Of a DNA stretch of 64,000 nucleotides, positions 2,972 to 56,383 are shown piece after piece; the stretch's first letter is position 1; each line of letters begins with the position of its first letter. The stretch is taken from positions 109,618,001 through 109,682,000 of the forward strand of contig CM059431.1 in the NCBI GenBank assembly GCA_030390025.1. Reading direction: 5' to 3'. This stretch comes from Squalus acanthias (taxonomy: Eukaryota). The position numbers and the translations under genes were made by a program. The notes beneath the pieces are model-generated. The model worked only from the letters and a program-made list of their open reading frames with translations. It made no database searches and was not told the origin of the DNA.

Positions 2972-5236
2972 CAGCTGTGGCTCAATTGGTATCACACTCG
3001 CCTCTGAGTCAGAAGGTTGTGGGTTCAACTCCCACTCCAGGGACTTGAGCACATAAAGCTCGGCTGACACTCCAGTGCAGTGCTGAGGGAGTGCTGCACT
3101 GTCGGAGGTGCCGTCTTTCAGATGAGACGTTAAACCGAGGTCCCGTCTGCTCTCTCAAGTTGACGTAAAAGATCCCTTGACACTATTTTGAAGAAGAGAT
3201 GGGGAGTTCTCCCTGGTGTCCTGGCCAATATTTATCCCTCAACCAACATAACAAAAGCAGATTATCTGGTCATTATCACATTGCTGTTTGTGGGAGCTTG
3301 CTGTGCGCAAATTGCCTGCCGTTTTTCCCACATTACAACAGTGACTACTGTAGAGGGTGGTGTGGTAGGGTCAGCTTCACCTCTGACTTCAGTGAGCGGT
3401 TCGAATCGCTCCCACTCCCTTGGTTCTAGACCTTGGACATATTTGGGGGTTGTGAACAAAAGGTGCAGTAGACAATTGAGTTTAATGAGAGAACTCCAAA
3501 CTTTATTCAAGATAAAACACAATAACAAATATAAACTTCAAGTACAGTAAGGGAACACTTTGGTACAAGCGAGGGAAATGACAGTATAACAGTAATTCAC
3601 CCCGCCCAACCCCACTACACTAACTAGGTTGGGTTTCAGAGGACCAGGAATAATGCTCACCACTCCTTGATAGTTGAGGTATTTTGCGATTCCGGGGTTC
3701 ACTGGGGTTTTTGGTTGTTGGGGCCTGCCGTACCCCAGACGTGGTAGAAGACTTCAGCTGCACTCCAGGTCAGTTTGGGTCTGTCCGCTGATGCGGTAAG
3801 GTGCGTATGTGGATCTATCAGGTGAGTACTCAATTTTTCTTCGTTAGAGGTAGGGTTTAGAGTTTTTTAAGGAAAAATCTTACCCAGGGGTAAGTCAGGA
3901 ATAGTTTGTAGTGTGGAAACTTGCGTGTCTTCGGTTTTTCCTGGTGTTGGTCTTTCGGTGGTCGCGACGGCCTGGTTCGCACCTGGTTGGTCGGTGGCGT
4001 GGTGTTGGTTGGTTCGTGGGGCCTTGGTTGCTGCGAGGCATTGGGAACCCTTTTCCCAGTCGGGTCCGTCGATGACACCCCCTTACTGTGGCGTGTTGTC
4101 CTTGCGTGCCTCGGTACTGTTACTAACTTTAAACTGCCTCTCTGGACAGCCTTGAATTAACTTTTAGTATAGTGTTGTAACAAACCGCACGGCTTGAACA
4201 GACACCACCACAGTGTCTCTCGGGTTCCTCGTGTCTTCTTGCCCATGGTTTTAGGTCTGCCTGCCTTCCAAAGGTTCTTCTTGTGACTCGTTCCTTGTTG
4301 CTTGGCTCTGGTGTCGCCCTCGTGTCGTGTGTGTTGAACTAACTTTCTTGGGGGATTAGGCCCTCAATTATACCGTTCAGGTCTATTGTGTTCTTCGCGC
4401 CAAAACTGTTTTACTAATCGATTTTGCGTTAAAGTGATTTAGGTTTCAGTTGAGGCCTGCTTATCTTCACGCCAAATCTCACTTCTTTTGTCTTAGGTTT
4501 TGGCGGGCTCGTTAAGTCTGATGACTTTAACTTTGTGTTAACTTGTCCTGATGGCTACCGATGTCTTCCATTGAGACAGGGCCTCTATCTACCCGCCAAA
4601 TCTCGCTTCTTTTGTCTTAGGTTTTTGGCGGGCTTGTTAAACTGTTCCTGTCGATACTTGGCTAATCGGGTTTTGATGGGATGATGGGCTATGAAACTGT
4701 GTACCGGCAGTTTTATTGTTAGGAATTGTTTTCAGACTTCCAGCATTCTGTCTGGACCTGGGGATTTCAAAAAGGGGTCTTGGTTTATTCATTTTTGAAT
4801 TTCACATGTTTGTGATGTTTTGGATGAGGCTCTTCCTCCTTGGTTGGATTGCAGTGCAAACATCTCCCAGACAGCTTGACTTGGTCCCAATACCCAAAAG
4901 CTGTCCACTGCCTCACCACACCCCTTCCCGCAGCCTGTGTTTCTGTGACTGCAGGTTTACCCAATGGCCCTTTTTAAAAGGTAGGGTTTTTTTTCTTCCT
5001 TGATCCTTTCAGAATGTCCAAAACTGAGGTTTTGACCTCAAATTCCTTTATTTCGGTCCCACCATTCCAAATTCATGTTAAGATCCAAAAATCACCCCCT
5101 TTAGGGTTCTATTCGAGTTTCTGGGGGATTTTGCGAAGCCTACACTACACTTCAAAAGTACTTAATTGACTGTAAAGCAATTTGAGATGTCCGGTGGTTG
5201 TGAAAGGCGCTATATAAATGCAAGTCTTTCTTTCTT
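2972..5236 (+). mobile_element. Deu-domain tRNA-derived SINE (SacSINE1-like), split by a solo LTR at 3349-5144
   Basis: tRNA-like head (GGTTCAACTCCC B-box), Deu core gattatctggtcattatcacattgctgtttgtgggagcttgctg. The SINE resumes at 5149 and ends in a (TTTC)n tail. Confidence 0.9.
3349..5144 (-). mobile_element. Solo LTR, family 1 (1796 bp)
   Basis: TGTAG...CTACA termini and an exact 4-bp TSD CTAC (3345-3348 / 5145-5148) inside a SINE. AATAAA on the minus strand at ~3502-3507; TATA-like motif at ~4367-4372(-). Confidence 0.9.
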
Positions 5237-13113: not shown

Positions 13114-14829
13114 TGTAAGGGGTTTTGTCACGTGCTTGTATCGCAGACGGTGCTGGTGCGAGGTTAGGCCTTCGTTGCCTAATACTATTGCTTGCTCTGG
13201 TCTCCGGCCAGCCTTGTTGCAATAAGCACCTGTGAGTGGTTCGACCCACTCGCCCTTACGGTTCTAACACTGGACTTAGGTGCGAGAGCAGTAATGCAGA
13301 GAAAAACTCAAATAGACCCGGTTGAATAGCACGAAACGGAAATCTTTATTGCATAGCGTCCAAAATCATGAAGTACATGTCATAGGCGCAAATTAATGAG
13401 AGTACAAGTATACATACATTCATAAAGCTTGGTCTATGGTAATGAAGAACGCACGGCACATCGTAAAAAGGGGAACACATTATACTTTATCCTTAATAAA
13501 ACCACCCTCCCCTATCAATACCTACACTACATCTAGATTTGTAGGATCGGGAAACATGCTCACCACTCGTGATACTTCGGAGAATTTTAAAGTGAGGCAC
13601 TCAGCTCGTTTCGCTGCAGCGCCTGACTGTCACGTGTTTGGAGGGGTCTCTGTACCCCACTTGTTTATCTTCGCTGCTGCGGCAAGCAGGCCGGGCTCCC
13701 CGTTGTCATGAAGAACTCGACGGCACTCGGGCCCGGCTGTAGAACTCAAAGAAAAGTCTTCCTGTACCGACACCAGCTGTCGGTAGAATTCAAAGAAGAG
13801 TCTTTGACCGGTTCGTGCAGTAACCTGTAGAGTTCAAGAAATGGGTCGTATATTTTCGGGCGCAGTCGGGGTTTACTGACCACGGCGGCACGTGGATTCT
13901 TCTTCTTCTCTTGTCATTTTGTCTTGTCTTGTTGGGCCTTCGGGTCCAAACACCGTTTACCGACTCTCGGGATGGTGCACCCTGTCACCGGCCTTCGTCG
14001 AGGCGACTTGTTCCAATTGAGCCCCACCCAACATTCGAATAACCGTCCAGTGCGGCTAAAGTCCAGAGTCAACAGAGTCCAGAGAAAACACAGAAGGCTG
14101 CTCGTCCAGCAGAGCGATACCCGAGGATCAGAATAGGAGAATAAAAGTTCAGCAGTCAGCAGCGAGATAAGAGAGTCAAGAGACCGATGGACATTTGTTC
14201 ACTATAGTTATAGTGCTGTGTCCCCTTATCTCCCGCTCAAATCTTAATGTTTGTCCTTTGTGAAATATCGGCGCTTAAAACTCCCAGCATGGGGCGATTC
14301 TTGTCTTTAATGGGTTTCGGTAGCACCTGAAACTGGCCAACTACCCGTTAATGTTTTCCCCATTGTTGGCCTAGCCAGGATCGTATGAATCGTCTCCCTG
14401 ACTGGTTTTGGGGGCCCCCGAATACTTGTTTAATCACCCGAGAATGGCTCTCTCATTGTAGAGCCGTGGGGGTATTTGTGTATTGATGTGTCTGGATGGG
14501 CCTTCAATTGCCCAGTACAATGGTCCTTACTTGTGCATGGAAAACGATTCCAGCACTCATATCTTTTGCTATTGTTTCGAAAGCAAACAGGTTGCATCCT
14601 GTCTATATCAGTGCTTATTGCGTATGATCCCGTCTTATATTGAAATGTATATTCGAACGCCATCTTGTCTGCCCACTGTAATTCTGGAAGCTTCTGCCAC
14701 GATGCGCGGTGGCCATTTTACAGGCTTCTGTGTCCTTTATATCATGACAGCATTTCGTTTAAATAAACTGATCAAACGAATCTGCTTCTATCTTGTTATT
14801 TCGAATCGCGATAATTGCAAAACTTTACA
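13114..14829 (-). mobile_element. Solo LTR, family 2, copy 1 (1716 bp)
   Basis: TGTAA...TTACA termini; 4-bp TSD GTTC (13110-13113 / 14830-14833); reverse-complement homologue of 54911-56383. Confidence 0.92.
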
Positions 14830-16612: not shown

Positions 16613-16829
16613 GCACCATTTACCCCAAACTGGTTTGCCCAGAACCCAGGCGGCACCGGGCCAGGTGCGTTCAGGAAAACCAGGTCTAGATGCGGCCTAA
16701 CCTGTGGTCCTTAAAGGGACCACTGGAGGCTGCCACCAGAAAGGTAAGTATAAAAAATGTTTTTTTTTAAAAAAGAATGTACAGGAGTGTTCCTCCACAT
16801 TAAAACCGCCTGCCACTGCCACCCACACA

Positions 16830-18366
16830 CTCGACACCACCCACCTCCTGATCAACACTCGACCCCCCCGATCAACACTTGACCCACCCCGACCAACACT
16901 CGACCCCCCCGATCAACACTCGACCCCCCCGATCAACACTCGACCCACCCCGATCAACACTCGACCCCCCGATCAACAATCGACCCCCCCGATCAACAAT
17001 CGACACCCCCCGATCAACAATCGACACCCCCCGATCAACACTCGACCCCCCCGATCAACACTCGACCCCCCCGATCAACACTCGACCCCCCCGATCAACA
17101 CTCGACCCACCCCGATCAACACTCGACCCCCCCGATCAACACTCGACCCCCCCGATCAACACTCGACCCCCCCCGATCAACACTCGACCCCCCCGATCAA
17201 CACTCGACCCCCCCCGATCAACACTCGACCCCCCCCGATCAACACTCGACCCCCCCGCAATCAACACTCGACCCCCCCGATCAACACTCGACCCCCCCCG
17301 ATCAACACTCGACCCCCCCCGATCAACACTCGACCCCCCCGCAATCAACACTCGACCCCCCCGATCAACACTCGACCCCCCCCGATCAACACTCGACCCC
17401 CCCCCGATCAACACTCGACCCCCCGATCAACACTCGACCCCCCCCGATCAACACTCGACACCCCCCCGATCAACACTCGACCCCCCCGATCAACACTGGA
17501 CCCCCCCCGATCAACACTCGACCCCCCCGCCATCAACACTCGACCCCCCCGAACAACACTCGACCCCCCCCCGATCAACACTCGACCCACCCGATCAACA
17601 CTCGACCCCCCCCCGATCAACACTCGACCCCCCACCGATCAACACTCGACCCCCCCGATCAACACTCGACCCCCCCCGATCAACACTCGACCCCCCCGAT
17701 CAACAATCGACACCCCCGATCAACACTCGACCGCCCCGATCAACACTCGACCCCCCGATCAACATTCGACCCCCCCGATCAACACTCGACCCCCCCGATC
17801 AACACTCGACCCCCCCCGATCAACACTCGACCCCCCACCGATCAACACTCGACCCCCCCAATCAACACTCGACCCCCCCGATCAACACTCGACCCCCCCG
17901 ATCAACACTCGACCCCCTCCCCGATCAACACTCGACCCCCCCCGATCAACACTCGACCCCCCCGATCAACACTCGACCCCCCCCGATCAACACTCGACCC
18001 CCCCCGATGAACACTCGACCCCCCCGATCAACACTCGACCCCCCGATCAACACTCGACCCCCCCCGATCAACACTCGACCCCCCCCGATCAACACTCGAC
18101 CCCACCCCGATCAACACTCGACCCCGCTGATCAACACTCGACACCCCCCGATCAACACTCGACCCCCCCGATCAACACTCGACCCCCCCGATCAACACTC
18201 GACCCCCCCGATCAACACTCGACCCCCCCACAATAAACACTTGATTCCCCCAATCAACGCTCGATCCCCTCCCGTCAACACTCAACCCCCCCCAATCAAC
18301 ATGCGACCCACCTCCCAATCAATGCTTGAAAACCCCTCCCAATCAACACTTGACCCCCCCGCAATC
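16830..18366. repeat. Minisatellite, ~19-22-bp unit C(5-9)GATCAACACTCGA, about 70 copies
   Basis: Direct reading. Unit length varies through the C-run; the array degenerates after ~18230 and resumes at 19884. Confidence 0.97.
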
Positions 18367-19883: not shown

Positions 19884-20178
19884 TCAACACTTGACTCCCC
19901 CAATCAACGCTCACCCTCCCGATCAACGCTCGACCCCCCCCAATCAACGCTCACCCTCCCGATCAATGCTTGACCCCGCCTCCCGATCAACACTCGACTC
20001 CCCCAATCAACGCTCACTCCACTCCCAATCAATGACCGAATGCCCTCTCCCGTGCACCATCCCCTCCCAATCGTCACCTCGATCCCCCTCCCGATCGCCA
20101 CCTCAACCCCCCCGATCATCATCTTGGCTTCCCCGATTGTCACCTCCACCCCCACTCCTGATCGTCACCACCATCCAT

Positions 20179-20470
20179 CTTCCAATCACCAACCTCCTCC
20201 CGAGCACCACATCGACCCTGCTTCCAATCACCAGCCCCCTCCCGAGCACCACATCGACCCCGCTTCCAATCACCAGCCCCCTCCCGAGCACCACATCGAC
20301 CCTGCTTCCAATCACCAACCTCCTCCCGAGCACCACATCGACCCTGCTTCCAATCACCAGCCCCCTCCCGAGCACCACATCGACCCCGCTTCCAATCACC
20401 AACCACCTCCCAAGCACCACATCGACCCCACTTCCAATCACCAGCCTCCTCCCAATTGTCACCTCGACCC
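20179..20470. repeat. 42-bp tandem repeat (~6.5 copies)
   Basis: Unit cttccaatcaccagccccctcccgagcaccacatcgaccc(t/c)g; 14-aa periodicity in the ORF track. Confidence 0.95.
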
Positions 20471-20706
20471 TCCAGAGCATCCAGTTGGCTGAAATCACTT
20501 TGATAATTTCAGTGGCACATCCATATTCTTTGCATATTTGGGACCTATTCTTCCCAAACAAAAACCTGCTTGTGTTACTCCATAACAGGGATTATCAGTG
20601 CGTGGAGAGACCTGGATTTGTAACATAAATTGTGCACTCCGTAGTTGGATTATTGTACTGTTTCATTCTTTATACCTGTTAAAGTTTGTTAGCTGATTGA
20701 GAAGCC

Positions 20707-35852: not shown

Positions 35853-37744
35853 ATGAGCTTGCAGCACCAATGAGCAGCACCTCGCTTCACAGATGAGTCC
35901 CTCCATAATCTTGTGGAGGGAGAGAGAGCACGTAGGGAGATTCTCTTCCCTCCCCAACAGACAAAGGCAGCGTGGCTGCAGATATCGCAGGAGGTTACAG
36001 GGCTGTCAGTGGTGGTTCGGACCTGGGTGCAGTGCCGCAGGAGGTTCAATGATCTAGTAAGATCAGGAAAAGTGAGTATTAAGCCACAATTACCTTGATG
36101 CTGCTGTGCGTCTCATCACATTCGCACCACTCTACATTGCCACCCCTACTCCTGCACAACGCTACACAGCCCAACATCCCAACATCCCTTGTACCTTCAT
36201 CCATCCCTGTAACTCTATCTGCATTATCAGGTCGCCATCTTACTATGCAGCCCTCACACTGAAACTCATCGTTATGTAATGACAGCAACTAACAACACAA
36301 AAGGAGGAAACTTGGTATTGCCAACCCACTCCATCAAATTGTCAGTGTAAAGCTCTATGCCATTCCATTCCTTACACTCATACCATCACTCCCACTGAAC
36401 CTTCTCTTCTTTCCCTTCTTGCAGGAAAAGATAGCCCACAATAAGAGGGAGAGGGAGAGAACGGGAGAAGGGCCTCCACAAACCATGTCATATCTGACGA
36501 GTGCAGAGGAGGCAGCACTGGAGATTGCTGGAGTGGTGGACGTTCCGCAAGTGGGGGACGGAGAGAGGGGCTCAGCAGAAGAAGCTGGTAACAGAATGAA
36601 TTTCCATACAATTGCATGCCTTTCATCATTGCCTCATATGGGGTGTGATGTCAAGACAAGATGAATGCTCATCATGTGGATTATGGGATGTGTCTGCAGT
36701 AGACATTCTGCATATCTAACTGATGTCTTCACTCTCCCACAGGTCCATCAAGGCCCCCCCCCCCCTCAATGTCCAGGAGCAACAGCAAGAAGACGCCTCA
36801 GAGCAGCCTCCTGCCTCTGAGGGCGCAGCGTCACCTCCGACAATGCAACCCAGCACCAGTGCAGAGTCGCATACCTCGGTGGGTATGTCACGAGATAGAG
36901 TAGTGTTGTCACCTGGTGTCTCACAGATCACAACTGAGCAGCAGCAGATGGTGGAGACATTGACAGCCGTGGAGACTCCTCGTCGGAGGGTGCAGGAGTC
37001 TCCTAGCTCTGCTCAGCTGCATGCAGACGCTGAGCCTGGGGCCATCCAGGAAGAGGGCAATCCTGGAGCTGCAGGAACAAGTGCAGGAGGCTCTGACTGG
37101 TTTTGCGACCGCGGTGACTGCGAGTGTGCAGAGAATGGAGGAGTCCATCTCCAGCATGAGCAACACTGTGGCGCACTCACTGGCAACTATAGCTTCCTCC
37201 ATGGATAGGATGGCCACCTGCAGAGAGGAGACACGGCGCCAGTCGCATGAGAACATGGTTTCTCTTCAAAGTAGATGCTCATCTATGGAGGAGAGATAGG
37301 CATCTATGGAGGAAAGAAACCAGAGGCTCATTGACGTCCTTTGTAGGAGGGATGTCAGTATAGAGGTGAGCCCTCATGGCCCCATTGAAGTGTAGCAAGG
37401 TGCTCTCAAGCTCCTTGCTAGCATGGAAGTGTGGGTGGCCCATGAGAGGGATGATGGTGAGTGGGGGCTCCACTCCAAGCGCTCTGACTTCCATCCCCTT
37501 GCTAACCCCTCGGTCAGAGCCCCAGATGCCTCCCCGGACAGTGATGGCCAAATCTGCCCCTGCACAGTCGCAGGAGGAGCAGACTTTGGCGGAGCTATCA
37601 GTGGCTCCAAAACCCAGAGGATGACCACCAAAGGCGTCTAAGCAGGCACAGCACGGAGACGAGGAGGCTGCCTCTACCTCTGCTGAAGCTGCAGGAGTGG
37701 CATGACGTAGAAGCACCCGGAAAAGAAAGATCCCACACAAATAG
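35853..37744 (+). pseudogene. Harbinger Myb/SANT-like DNA-binding protein (NAIF1/MSANTD-like), 3 exons: 35853-36071, 36425-36587, 36743-37744
   Basis: AAPRFTDESL..LVEG...ILFP..KAAWLQISQEV...RTWVQCRRRFNDL; exon 2 EKIAHNKRERERTGEGPP..LTSAEE; GT-AG sites (AAA|gtgagt, tgcag|GAA, CTG|gtaaca, cacag|GT). Early TGA and frameshifts. Confidence 0.85.
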
Positions 37745-37764
37745 TCACAAGGGTAGTCACTCAG

Positions 37765-38553
37765 GTGTGTCTTGGCGAAGTGCTGAGGGATGGTGGACTG
37801 GCACAGGATGTACGAGTCATGGCAGCTGCCAGGGAACTTGGCGTACACATGGATGATAATCTTCCTATGGTTGCAGACCAGCTGAACGTTGAGGGAGTGG
37901 AAGCCCTTGCGGTTAACAAATACTGCTGGGTTGTGATGGGGTGCCCTGATGGCCACATGTGTGCAGTCGATGACTCCCTGCACCCGTGGAAAGACAGCTA
38001 GAACGGCAAAGCCAAGCGCACGTTCATTGACAGTGGCTTCATCAGTGGCAAAATGAATATAATTTGCGGACTTGTTAAATAGGGCATCGGTGACCTGTGC
38101 GATGCATCTGTGTGCGGCCGACTGCGAGATGCTGCAAAGATCTGTTGCTGGTGCCTGGAAGGAGCCTGAGGCGAAGAAGTTGGGGGCAAGGGTGACTTTG
38201 ACAGCCACTCGTAAGGAGTGTCCACCCCTTCCTCTGAGCTGCAGGTCTTGCTCCAGCATTGTGCAAATGTCGGCGACGACCTGGCGCAATAACCTGAGCC
38301 TCCTTTGGCACTGCTGCTCCGTCATGTTGAGGAAGCTCATCCTCTGCCAGTATACCCTGTGTTGAGGGTATGGACTCCGGCACGGTGCAGCCCTGCGCTG
38401 ATGCCCTCTGCCCTGTGCAGCATCAGGTGGTTGAGGAGAAGGTTGGTGCTCTTGTTGTTGCTGCTGCTGCTGGTGTGGCTGGTTCTGCTGCTGCTGCAGC
38501 TGATCGTCATCAGATTCGGAGGACCAAGGTGACACAGCATAAATCGTGCCCAT
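37765..38553 (-). pseudogene. HARBI1-like Harbinger transposase, N-terminal ~260 aa
   Basis: [50 protein letters not shown]; lacks the GD.GY and distal E motifs. Confidence 0.92.
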
Positions 38554-39343
38554 TCTGATGATTCATATGGCAGGTGAAGTTACCTGGCGTGATCCCCAAG
38601 TGACGGGAACCTCGTGGAAAACATGGGAAACTACTTTGTGCCTGCTAAAATGGTTAGTAAATTGGTTTAAACACCCTCTCAACTAGCGCAACTGAATGAC
38701 CCATCGCTTAGTGCCGTGTCTGCAAAGCGCAGGCAGAACCGGCGCTAGGGAAACTCGCAAGGAGGCGGGATTAGAGCGGGATACCGCCCCGCTGTCAATC
38801 ATTTGGATTTTGACAGCGGACCCGCCTCCGAACCCACCCTCTGAGCGCCGGCAAAATTCAGCCCTTTGTGTTTCCTGTACGAGGACAACTAAATCTCACT
38901 GAGCACCAACATTTAACAGTTTCTCACCATTTAAAAAATATTCTGTTTTTCTATTCTTCCTACCAAAGTGAATAACCTCACATTTTCCAAGCGATAGAGG
39001 GAAAAGGGAGCCGAGCAGTTGCAAGAAGACACAGCCATGGACACAAGATGGGAGGGTGTGTAATCAGCCAGTTCTGGGCCCAGCATGCATAGGTTTGTCA
39101 ACTGTTTAAGATTTTCCTGGAGTTTCCAGGGATGAAAGATTAATCTCCTGGACACTGCTGCAAGCAACCCAGGAGAAAAATCAGTGGGGTATTCAAAAAA
39201 TTGTGTGTTTTTCTCATTTTCTTTGAATACTTCCAATCATTAGTTATAAAAATATTGGAGATGGGAAAAGAAAGTGTTTGACTGAGCAGGTGGTTGGGGA
39301 CGGAAAGTCAGACGCAATGAAACCTTCAGGAATTCATCCAACC

Positions 39344-48499: not shown

Positions 48500-48561
48500 T
48501 TTTAAATAAATCTGTTGGACTATAACCTGGTGTTGTGTGACTTCTCATATATAACAGCAGA

Positions 48562-49795
48562 ATGGGAACGGTTTGTACTCTCTCATCCTGGTCCTCAAAA
48601 TCTGAAGAGGATCAACCGCAGCACCAGCAGAACCAGGCACACCAGCAGCACCAACAACAAGAGCGCCAACCTTCTCCTCAACCACCTGATGCTGCGCAGG
48701 GCAGAGGCCATCAGCACAGGGCTGCACCGTGCCACATGAGATACCCCCAACACAGGGTTTACAGGCAGAGGATGAGCTTCCTCAACATGAGTGAGCAGCA
48801 GTGCCAAAGGAGGCTGAGACTTTCGCGAGAGGTAGTCGCAGACATTTGCACAATGCTGCACCAAGACCTGCAGCCCAGAGGAGCAGGTGAACACTCTTTA
48901 CCAGTGGCTGTCAAAGTCTCCACCGCCCTCAACTTCTTTGCGTCAGGTTCCTTCCATGGATCAGCAGCAGACATCAGCGGCATCTCGCAGTCGGCCACCC
49001 ACAGATGCATCATGCAGGTTACCGATGTCCTCTTTACCAAGTCCGCCAATTACATTTACTCTCCCACTGATGAGGCAAGTGTTACCGAGTGGGCGCTAGG
49101 CTTTGTCAATCTGGCTGGCTTCCCACGGGTGCAGGGCGTCATTGACTGCACACATGTGGCCATCAGGGCACTCCATCACAACCCAGCAGTATTTGCCAAC
49201 CGCAAGGGCTTCCACTCCCTTAACGTGCAGCTGGTGTGCAACCATAGGAAGATTATCATCCATGTGTACACCAAATTCCCTGGCAGCTGCCATGACTCGT
49301 ACATCCTGCACCAGTCCACTATCCCTCAGCTCTTTGCTCTGCCAAACAAACTTTCTGGATGACTCCTTGGAGATAAGGGCTATCCCCTGAAGACGTGCCT
49401 AATGACACCGTTTAGGAGGCCATCAAACGAGTCTGAGGAGCGTTACAATCAAAGCCATATTTCCACCAGAAGTGTCAAAGAGCAAACAATAGGGTTGCTC
49501 AAAAAGTGCTTCAGATGCCTGGACAGATCTGGTGGAGCCCTACAGTACGTACCAGCTAGGGTCTCGAGAATCATCGTTGTCTGCTGTGCCCTGCACAATA
49601 TCACACTGCAGCGAGGATCAGCGCTGGATGAGGAACAAGGCACAGAGCGCACAGCCTCTTCAGAGGAGGAGGAGCAGAATGAGGTCCCAGATGAGGAACA
49701 CCTGGAGGAGGCGGCTGACCCATTGCGACCAGCACGCGAGCACATTGCTGCCGGTGATGCCAGAGATGGCCTGATCATTGCCAGATTCACCTATA
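48562..49795 (+). pseudogene. HARBI1-like Harbinger DDE transposase, ~410 codons with one in-frame stop
   Basis: ORFs 48562..49362 and 49402..49881 are in the same frame. GVIDCTH (D), [11 protein letters not shown] (D), [18 protein letters not shown] (E), [10 protein letters not shown] at 49360-49362 sits where W is expected. Confidence 0.93.
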
Positions 49796-54910: not shown

Positions 54911-56383
54911 TGTAAAATTCGCAATTATCGCGATTCGAAATAACGAGATAAAGCAGGTTCGTTTCATCAGTTTTATTTCAACGAAATGCTGTCATGATTA
55001 AACAGGACACAGAAGCCTGTAAAATGGCCGCCGCGCCTCGTGGCAGAAGCTTCCAGAATTTTCAGTGGGCAGACAAGATGGCGTTCGAATAAACATTTCA
55101 GTATAAGATTGGTTAATACGTAGCAAACACTGATAAAGACAGGATGCAACCTGTCTGCATTCGACACAATAGCAAGAGATATAAGTGCTGGAATCATTTT
55201 CCATGCACAAGTAAGGACCATTGTACTGGGCAATCGAAGGCCCATCCAAATACATCAATACGCAAATTCCCCACGGCTCTACAATGAGAGAGCCATTCTC
55301 GGGTGCTTACACAAGTATTCGGAGGCCCCCAAAACCAGTCAGGGAGGCTCCTAGTCGGTTCCACAATGGGAAAAACATTAACGGGTAGTTGGCCAGTCTC
55401 AGGTGCTACCGAAACCCATTACAAACAAGAATCACCCCATACTGGGAATTTTGAGCGCCAAGATTTCACAAAGGACAAACATTAAGATTTGAGCGGGAGA
55501 TAAGAAAACACAGCACTATAACTATAGACAACAAATGTCCATCGCTCTCTTATCTCAGCTGATGGGCTTATTCTCTGGATTCGACTCATATCTCTGCTGA
55601 CTCTTGACTCGGGCTGAACTCTTGACTATTTTATCTCGCTGATGACTGCTGAACTTTTATTCTCCTATTCTGATCCTCGGGTATCGCTCTGCTGGACGAG
55701 CAGCTTTCTGTTTTTCTCTGGACTCTGTTGACTATGTTGGGTGGAGCTCGAACGGAACGAGCCGCCTCGACGAAGGCCAGTGACCGGGTGCACCATCCCG
55801 AGAGTCGGTAAACGGTGTCTGGACCCGAAGGCCCGAAGAGATGAGACGAGACGAGACGAGAAGAAAAGGAGAAGAATCCACGTACCGCCACGGTCAGTAA
55901 ACCCCGACCGCGCCCGAAAATACAAGAAAGAACTGCAGCGAAACGAGCCGAGTGCCTTACTTTAAAATTCTCCGAAGTATCACGATTAGTGTAGGTATTG
56001 ATAGGGGAGGGTGGTTTATTAAGGATAAATATAATGTGTTCCCCTTTTTACGATGTGCCGTGCGTTCCTCATTACCCTAGACCAAGTTTTATGAATGTAT
56101 GTATACTTGTACTATCGTTAATTTGTGCCTATGACATGTACTTCATGATTTTGGACGTTATGCAATAAAGATTTCCATTTCGTACTATTCAACCGAGTCT
56201 ATTTGAGTTTTCTCTGCATTACTGCTCTCACACCTAAGTCCAGTGTTAGAACCGTAAGGGCGAGTGGGTCGAACCACTCACAGGTGCTTATTGCAACAAG
56301 GCTGGCAGGAGACCAGAGCAAGCAATAGTATTAGGCAACGAAGGCCTAACCCCGCACAAGCACCTACGACCGAACCCCTTACA
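54911..56383 (+). mobile_element. Solo LTR, family 2, copy 2 (1473 bp), inserted in a degenerate Deu SINE (~54680-54910 / 56388-56475)
   Basis: TGTAA...TTACA; 4-bp TSD TATG (54907-54910 / 56384-56387); AATAAA at 56164-56169. Confidence 0.92.

Follow-up and report, generated by a model that had tools for sequence, protein, structure and literature searches.

A candidate primer activation signal complementary to a tRNA T-arm in the U5 of two long-LTR families of Squalus acanthias

Three solo long terminal repeats (LTRs) from two families lie in the 64,000-nucleotide stretch of Squalus acanthias DNA analysed here (assembly GCA_030390025.1, contig CM059431.1, positions 109,618,001 to 109,682,000; "the window", numbered from its first letter), and all three carry the same block of 44-47 nt in U5, the part of the LTR lying downstream of its poly(A) signal. 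The block is genuine and conserved, and the two long-LTR families that carry it are homologous. In our view it is best explained as a masked primer activation signal (PAS), a short segment that would be complementary to the T-arm of the tRNA priming reverse transcription; we assign this reading a probability of about 0.45. An earlier, sequence-only reading of the window had taken the motif for a selected cis-element, namely a TFIIIC site or insulator, an antisense RNA polymerase III RNA, or a U5 structure used in priming or integration. The idea of a conserved U5 cis-element is supported, and among the proposed roles priming fits best, although by way of T-arm complementarity, which the sequence-only reading did not propose. 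A role in integration is unlikely, since the motif lies 43-118 nt from the LTR end and this distance is not conserved.

A U5 segment complementary to the tRNA T-arm

In family 1 the motif spans 3392..3438 on the minus strand (copy A; the sequence-only reading had written it on the antisense strand). In family 2 it spans 13232..13275 on the minus strand (copy B) and 56238..56281 on the plus strand (copy C), the latter being identical to copy B at 44/44 positions. The letters and coordinates given earlier for the three copies (3392-3438 and 13232-13275 as plus strand, 56238-56281 as reverse complement) were confirmed, and the placement between AATAAA and the terminal CA, that is in U5, holds in 3/3 solo LTRs.

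All three copies contain a match to the B-box, antisense to the LTR and within U5. The B-box is a DNA copy of the tRNA T-loop, so an antisense B-box in an LTR gives the element an RNA that can pair with a tRNA T-arm. Likeness to the B-box consensus would then arise because the segment is the complement of a T-arm, and the motif would form a hairpin because complementing the stem-loop of a T-arm yields another stem-loop. A "B-box" that stands antisense in U5 need not be a polymerase III promoter. The LTR-sense RNA reads UCGAACCRCU in 3/3 copies, with 9-10 nt complementary to a tRNA T-arm. This candidate signal lies at 3395..3404 (minus strand) in copy A, at 13235..13244 (minus strand, within a predicted 6-bp hairpin) in copy B and at 56269-56278 in copy C; given the inferred orientation it stands in U5, upstream of the expected primer-binding site, in each copy. 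Its core TCGAACC occurs three times in 128 kb (both strands of the window), always inside the motif. When the two U5 sequences were shuffled, the heptamer appeared in 174 and 170 of 20000 shuffles (<1%) and the 9-letter form in 37 and 38 of 20000 (~0.2%).

Candidate tRNAs were compared by eye with 31 published antisense probes, which are directed against mammalian tRNAs and not those of the host (PMC7428014, file 5); several Ala, Gln, Pro and other isoacceptors fall outside this table. The family-2 9-mer is present in the Asn-GTT probe alone, and Asn-GTT is the only one of the 31 that fits both families, at T-arm positions ~49-58. Pairing to Asn-GTT comprises nine Watson-Crick pairs plus one G.U pair in family 2 and eight plus two in family 1, where an A>G change in the segment keeps the Asn pair as G.U. 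The whole family-2 hairpin follows the Asn probe over 14/15 letters with one gap. His-GTG fits family 1 with eight Watson-Crick pairs, outside the part that would be taken by the primer-binding site, and tRNA-Tyr and tRNA-Phe give family 2 eight each. As far as these letters go, tRNA-Asn would be the best single guess for the primer. A near-motif pattern was also found inside 28 of the 62 tRNAs called in 120 viral loci, 26 of these 28 having it 24-25 nt from the 3' end, i.e. in the T-arm; 14 of the 28 are tRNA-Asn, but the pattern had been shaped with Asn in mind and the share is no evidence.

In the proposed mechanism the 3' end of the priming tRNA would bind the primer-binding site, the opened T-arm of the same tRNA would pair with the U5 segment, and a predicted stem would hide this segment until priming. 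Masking is predicted to take the form of a local hairpin in family 2 and of a long-range helix with a conserved, splice donor-like block in family 1. The predicted cost of opening the 10-mer is 5.0-6.8 (A), 9.4-10.4 (B) and 7.2-8.2 (C) kcal/mol, calculated on the LTR only. For copies B and C, folding predicts a helix between the AAGGG side of the motif and the final bases of the LTR (P 0.93-0.99 in 4/5 contexts for copy B), which would bring the distant segment beside the primer-binding site and so offset its longer distance.

The closest parallels come from two retroviruses. The PAS of human immunodeficiency virus 1 (HIV-1) is described as an 8-nt motif that lies upstream in the leader, where base pairing masks it, and whose sequence is complementary to the TΨC arm (PMC1865047), and a contact between U5 and the TΨC loop has been proposed for avian sarcoma virus (PMC3185550). 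The dogfish-window segment resembles both in being a short U5 stretch upstream of where the primer-binding site would lie, complementary to a T-arm and predicted, here from sequence only, to be masked. It differs from the 8-nt HIV-1 motif in covering 9-10 nt over the T-loop and the 5' side of the T-stem, which is closer to the avian case, and it differs from both in its position: the distance to the LTR end is 46 nt for family 1 and 105-121 nt for family 2 (121 nt in copy B).

Several points weigh against a primer activation signal. All copies are solo LTRs; neither the window nor the other loci examined contain internal sequence, so that the primer-binding site was unseen, and no loose read ends fell at the LTR ends among the 24 of 500 listed. 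The T-arm match was sought after the fact, its 7-nt core is common to many tRNAs, the probes are from mammals rather than from the host, and the match explains only ~10-15 of the 44-47 nt of the motif. The distance from the motif core to AATAAA is constant (103, 106 and 105 nt in A, B and C), while that to the LTR end varies (56, 131 and 115 nt); this constancy would suit a function linked to 3'-end processing equally well or better. Copies B and C have a second AATAAA at a distance of 67-68 nt from their opposite end (A has none), which adds uncertainty to the orientation. Finally, the PAS itself is disputed: two papers report a probing study that found no PAS-anti-PAS contact (PMC1865047, PMC3185550), and one of them describes murine leukaemia virus as being without a U5-TΨC contact (PMC3185550).

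Few retroviruses are known to make additional contacts between tRNA and template, and even for HIV-1 such contacts are contested. The two diverged high-copy LTR families offer a natural comparative test here, as the segment predicts the primer (Asn in both, or for family 1 His) ahead of any reading of the primer-binding site. Should the primer turn out otherwise, the remainder is an ordinary conserved U5 block in two unannotated LTR families. A more far-reaching version, which we regard as a long shot, takes the lineage to be foamy-like, high in copy number and probably of sharks, and sees in its 10-nt U5 segment a three-way switch between its own hairpin, a splice donor ~250-320 nt upstream and the T-arm of the priming tRNA (Asn). 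If true, the control of poly(A) use and splicing and the start of reverse transcription would be coupled by one strand exchange; no earlier T-arm contact would then be on record for the foamy branch, and the device would date back to the base of vertebrate retroviruses.

The LTR copies and the homology of the two families

Copy A is a solo LTR of family 1 at 3349..5144 (minus strand, 1796 bp, TGTAG..CTACA), inserted into the tail of a SINE-like repeat (SINE, short interspersed nuclear element) with the 4-bp target duplication CTAC. Family 2 is represented by the solo LTRs at 13114..14829 (copy B; minus strand, 1716 bp, TGTAA..TTACA, target duplication GTTC) and 54911..56383 (copy C; plus strand, 1473 bp, target duplication TATG). 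All three LTRs thus begin with TG, end with CA and are flanked by a target duplication of 4 bp, and the empty site of copy B is visible as a joint in 4/4 sequencing runs compared. Copy C is without ~231 nt of U3 (region 55900-55990) and without 36 nt including the donor-like GT.

LTR sense is very probably the minus strand for copies A and B and the plus strand for copy C. AATAAA near the LTR end is found in all three copies on the inferred sense strand only, at 3502..3507 (A, minus strand), 13345..13350 (B, minus strand) and 56164..56169 (C, plus strand), each upstream of the motif core by the distances given above; two TGTA words occur in the 100 nt upstream of it in A, four in the 100 nt upstream in B, and four upstream in C. 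Between copies B and C, U3 shows 85 differences over 932 aligned bases and R-U5 shows 17 over 432. Taking the conserved end as R-U5 supports the inferred orientation, as an R-U5 end more conserved than U3 is the usual LTR pattern (PMC3601003).

A degenerate 20-mer core of the motif occurs exactly three times in the window. When as many as 3 mismatches are allowed, it gives six matches on both strands of the window against 0.07 expected, a number reached by 0/100 shuffles; three of the six are the same palindromes read from the opposite strand. The sequence-only reading had been unable to align the rest of the LTRs by eye, yet ~200-260 nt upstream of U5 align with a score of 80 against 29.7±4.9 for shuffles (0/300). 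Local alignment of the two U5 regions scores 51 against 23.8±4.5 (0/300 shuffles), and the two U3 regions are at chance level (64 against 57.9±8.3, 13/60 shuffles). Nor is the motif the sole or the best conserved block; together with covariation that is not significant, this goes part of the way towards the refutation that the sequence-only reading had itself defined. The strongest blastn block between the families is a donor-like 26-mer (E 0.003; motif E 0.38), located at 3640..3665 in copy A (minus strand, GT at 3660) and at 13543..13568 in copy B (minus strand, GT at 13563) and identical at 22/26 positions. The ungapped 20-mer identity of 16/20 in the motif, taken alone against a whole-LTR null, is reached by 29/40 shuffles. 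Judged by these alignments, the two families are homologous over R-U5. The LTRs are thus related and have at least one further conserved block besides the motif, which is not a module common to unrelated LTRs.

Searches outside the window added no further copies of the motif. The full 47-nt motif pattern had no match in viral and metagenome contigs, and the donor-block pattern none in viral contigs. The degenerate 20-mer had 50 + 1 matches in viral and metagenome contigs, which we rejected as chance: they showed no LTR likeness beyond the 20-mer and a few flanking letters, none lay within a called tRNA, and most were in GC-rich microbial DNA. No reading frame is common to both families or kept between copies B and C in U3, and four open reading frames overlapping the LTRs had no Pfam match. 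No description of these LTRs or of the motif was found in the literature, though the families may well be catalogued in Repbase or Dfam, which were not consulted; six 13-letter motifs of the window, sought in paper texts, gave one match, which was unrelated.

The structural claims of the sequence-only reading fared less well. It had interpreted a C:G to T:A change in the stem as compensatory covariation, but the claim comes from one pair in two distinct sequences, and both changes are CpG transitions. Family 1 carries the 5' arm of the stem twice in tandem, and if the gap is placed within the stem the alignment score rises in 4/5 schemes; the compensatory change then vanishes. A G.U pair had been noted to form only on the strand antisense to the LTR, but it does not fix the strand, as the sense strand folds too. 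On the LTR-sense strand of family 1 the 3' arm can form either a stem of 5 bp or an alternative register that includes a U.G pair, and the family-2 hairpin is as stable or more so on the sense strand (-10.7 vs -9.2 kcal/mol). The motif stem stands outside the tRNA T-arm register (2/5 pairs in both families), and the folding z-scores of U5 are near zero (0.37, 1.04 and 0.44). A kissing-loop role was considered and rejected, the loop palindrome being 6 nt in family 1 versus 4 nt in family 2.

Read-level variants comprise one inside the motif (13266) and none in the stem among the 40 of 210 differences listed, which is no proof of invariance. The A>G variant at 13266 makes up 48%, 84%, 1% and 83% of the contig depth in four sequencing runs. 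In this form the LTR-sense strand resembles the first eight letters of the anti-tRNA-Leu-CAA probe, with which the conserved pieces of the motif are collinear; one possible origin of the motif is the 3' half of a tRNA, copied in antisense and since decayed.

Family 2 is present in high copy number (3987, 1212, 372 and 496 contigs in four sequencing runs) and was found in 20 of the 22 runs listed, which come from six organisms and 8 studies; four of the runs were examined in detail. Contig depth per position is not usable to rank parts of the LTR, and its peaks over the motif, the donor block and 14646-14706 were not counted as evidence. One run may be RNA, but its coverage extends over both U3 and R-U5 and is uninformative about expression. 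The ~231-nt U3 deletion of copy C is also present as a joint 13619-13851 in one run, and the deleted form is probably a family-2 subfamily. Two runs each hold a ~90%-alike contig that covers or borders the motif and leaves copy B just past it (13227), on the LTR-end side; going by their letters, these contigs belong to a further family-2 subfamily.

Alternative explanations

The alternative that survives best, unlikely as we consider it, is plain inheritance. R-U5 would simply be the slower-evolving part of the LTR, with the block kept for a reason other than tRNA binding (packaging, dimerisation via the palindromic TCGA loop, or a DNA-binding factor) and the T-arm likeness due to chance. Copies B and C show 0/44 differences in the motif, yet only 5/131 in the flanking U5, so the motif is not outstanding; the 16/20 identity alone, which falls within the whole-LTR null, and the near-zero folding z-scores point the same way. 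Chance likeness, however, has to accommodate an exact 7-mer kept in both families that arises in <1% of U5 shuffles, and a sole change in the 10-mer that is of the type tolerated by a G.U pair.

Ranked only just behind, and compatible with a primer signal, is a model in which the motif would either pair with the donor-like block over ~250-320 nt or fold locally, thereby controlling access of U1 and poly(A) use at both LTRs. RNA structure is reported to exert such control of U1 access and poly(A) use in foamy viruses (PMC3694450). The two best-conserved blocks, donor-like block and motif, are mutually complementary. In family 1 their predicted duplex reaches -27.2 kcal/mol (0/1000 motif shuffles, 3/1000 donor shuffles), the two are each other's best partners and rank top among 1699 26-mers of the LTR, and three helices between them are predicted at P 0.86-1.0 in 4/5 contexts. 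Cross-family duplexes were equalled by 9 and 7 of 1000 shuffles, and a joint column permutation gave 13/3000 for the sum and 56/3000 for the weaker family; the constant distance from motif core to AATAAA is a further point in favour. Family 2 follows this pattern weakly. Its duplex of -19.6 kcal/mol has a 7-bp core only (97 and 184 of 1000 shuffles), its local hairpin is 5.5-8.6 kcal/mol more favourable than donor pairing, and 1244/3000 permutations contain a 7-bp helix by itself. No donor:motif pair is changed on both sides, the donor-like GT is not the top U1 match in either LTR, copy C is without the donor, and the donor-like block may lie in U3. Mammalian ERVL/MaLR LTRs, which are much shorter than those of the window, offer a partial analogy. 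Like the copies described here they are solo LTRs with a conserved splice donor near the 3' end, but the donor consensus differs (PMC5538554).

Less probable again is a B-box-only TFIIIC site of the ETC (extra TFIIIC) type, which would act as DNA, serving as an insulator or positioning signal on thousands of LTRs. Both families match the B-box consensus at 10/11 positions, and two of the three differences between the families fall at free consensus positions. ETC sites do exist, some of them transposon-derived (PMC5340127). Such a site requires no A-box, which agrees with a B-box that stands without one, and the high copy number of family 2 would suit it. On the other hand, the window contains 14 occurrences of the loose core GTTCRANNC, the second B-box-like repeat does not match in family 2 and varies at 13266 in 3/4 runs at about half or more of depth, and the antisense orientation, the placement in U5 and the stem are left unexplained.

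An antisense polymerase III gene, either a microRNA-type cassette as in foamy viruses and bovine leukaemia virus (BLV) or a tRNA-derived promoter as in Helenus, is very improbable: apart from the B-box match, family 1 has one-mismatch A-box-like strings 23-29 nt upstream, and no T4 run interrupts the next ~300 nt, the first one standing at homologous places in the two families, but such A-box-like strings occur in 37% of random stretches and the family-1 candidates are at chance level, the family-2 candidates lie at 11 and 87 nt, TRGCY is absent within 100 nt in 3/3 copies, the first T4 run is 283, 346 and 307 nt away, the stem has 5-7 bp, and neither an ARAGORN tRNA nor an Rfam match falls on the motif (Rfam in the window: none at gathering level and, up to E 5, three weak matches, none on the motif). 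The small-RNA proposal of the sequence-only reading thus fails, there being no A-box conserved in both families, no nearby terminator (T4 283-346 nt off), a 6-bp stem, and a location in U5 rather than U3. The published cassettes of simian foamy virus and BLV share with the motif a B-box-like string in retroviral sequence, but they are described as depending on an A-box, a B-box and a terminator placed where a long stem has its base, with the foamy ones in U3 (PMC3993851); here the string is antisense, in U5, on a 6-bp stem and with the terminator ~300 nt off. The Helenus and Cassandra elements (terminal-repeat retrotransposons in miniature) likewise carry tRNA-like B-box letters (GGTTC) in the LTR, with 4-bp duplications in animal Helenus (PMC10886601). 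Helenus, however, is described with a box A (TRGCY..YGG) besides box B and with LTRs of <=323 bp (PMC10886601), whereas the LTRs of the window are five times longer and without box A.

Element class and further observations

We place the two families, with somewhat better than even odds, among the foamy-like endogenous retroviruses, epsilon-like elements or Gypsy making up the rest. Foamy-like traits are the long LTRs (1.5-1.8 kb) and the 4-nt target duplications of all copies, neither exclusive to the foamy-like group. A donor-like block 153 and 213 nt upstream of AATAAA would also fit, but it is absent from copy C, is not the top U1 match and may lie in U3. Foamy-like LTRs of cichlid and killifish measure 1,498 and 1,634 nt (PMC5512871), and foamy-like elements with Asn primers are reported from fish, newt and galago (PMC5210030, PMC5512871). 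Unlike those elements, the copies of the window are solo LTRs and so provide no pol, no primer-binding site (Lys, Asn or Thr in the foamy-like group) and no GGGTG junction of polypurine tract and LTR for comparison, and short-word searches gave no match of the motif in published foamy-like LTRs. Target duplications of 4 nt are also reported from gammaretroviruses (PMC5210030) and animal Helenus (PMC10886601), and the elephant shark has epsilon-like and snakehead-like elements too (PMC4422223). In the killifish-order element (acc3-env-acc1-acc2), a hairpin at ~13121-13150 between env and acc1 has, on the antisense strand, a full B-box match in T-arm geometry (PMC5512871, supplement 1).

Outside R-U5 the families differ in several features. 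The U3 of family 1 contains a 55-bp direct duplication (91%; 4462-4515 and 4586-4640), typical of enhancer repeats. Family 2 has two words at LTR positions 111 and 164 (14646-14770; 54970-55085), which we take to be YY1-like, as well as the opposite-strand AATAAA 67-68 nt from the other LTR end; family 1 is without either. Together the two features of family 2 could form an antisense promoter or poly(A) unit.

Elsewhere in the window two transposase frames of the DDE_Tnp_4 family, presumably Harbinger-type, lie in inverted arrangement at 37282-38562 (minus strand) and 48541-49359 (plus strand), with several nested inverted repeats between 37066 and 51958. Tandem arrays occupy 16800-18200 (unit ~20 nt), 1979-2462 (10-15 nt) and 20113-20513 (42 nt).

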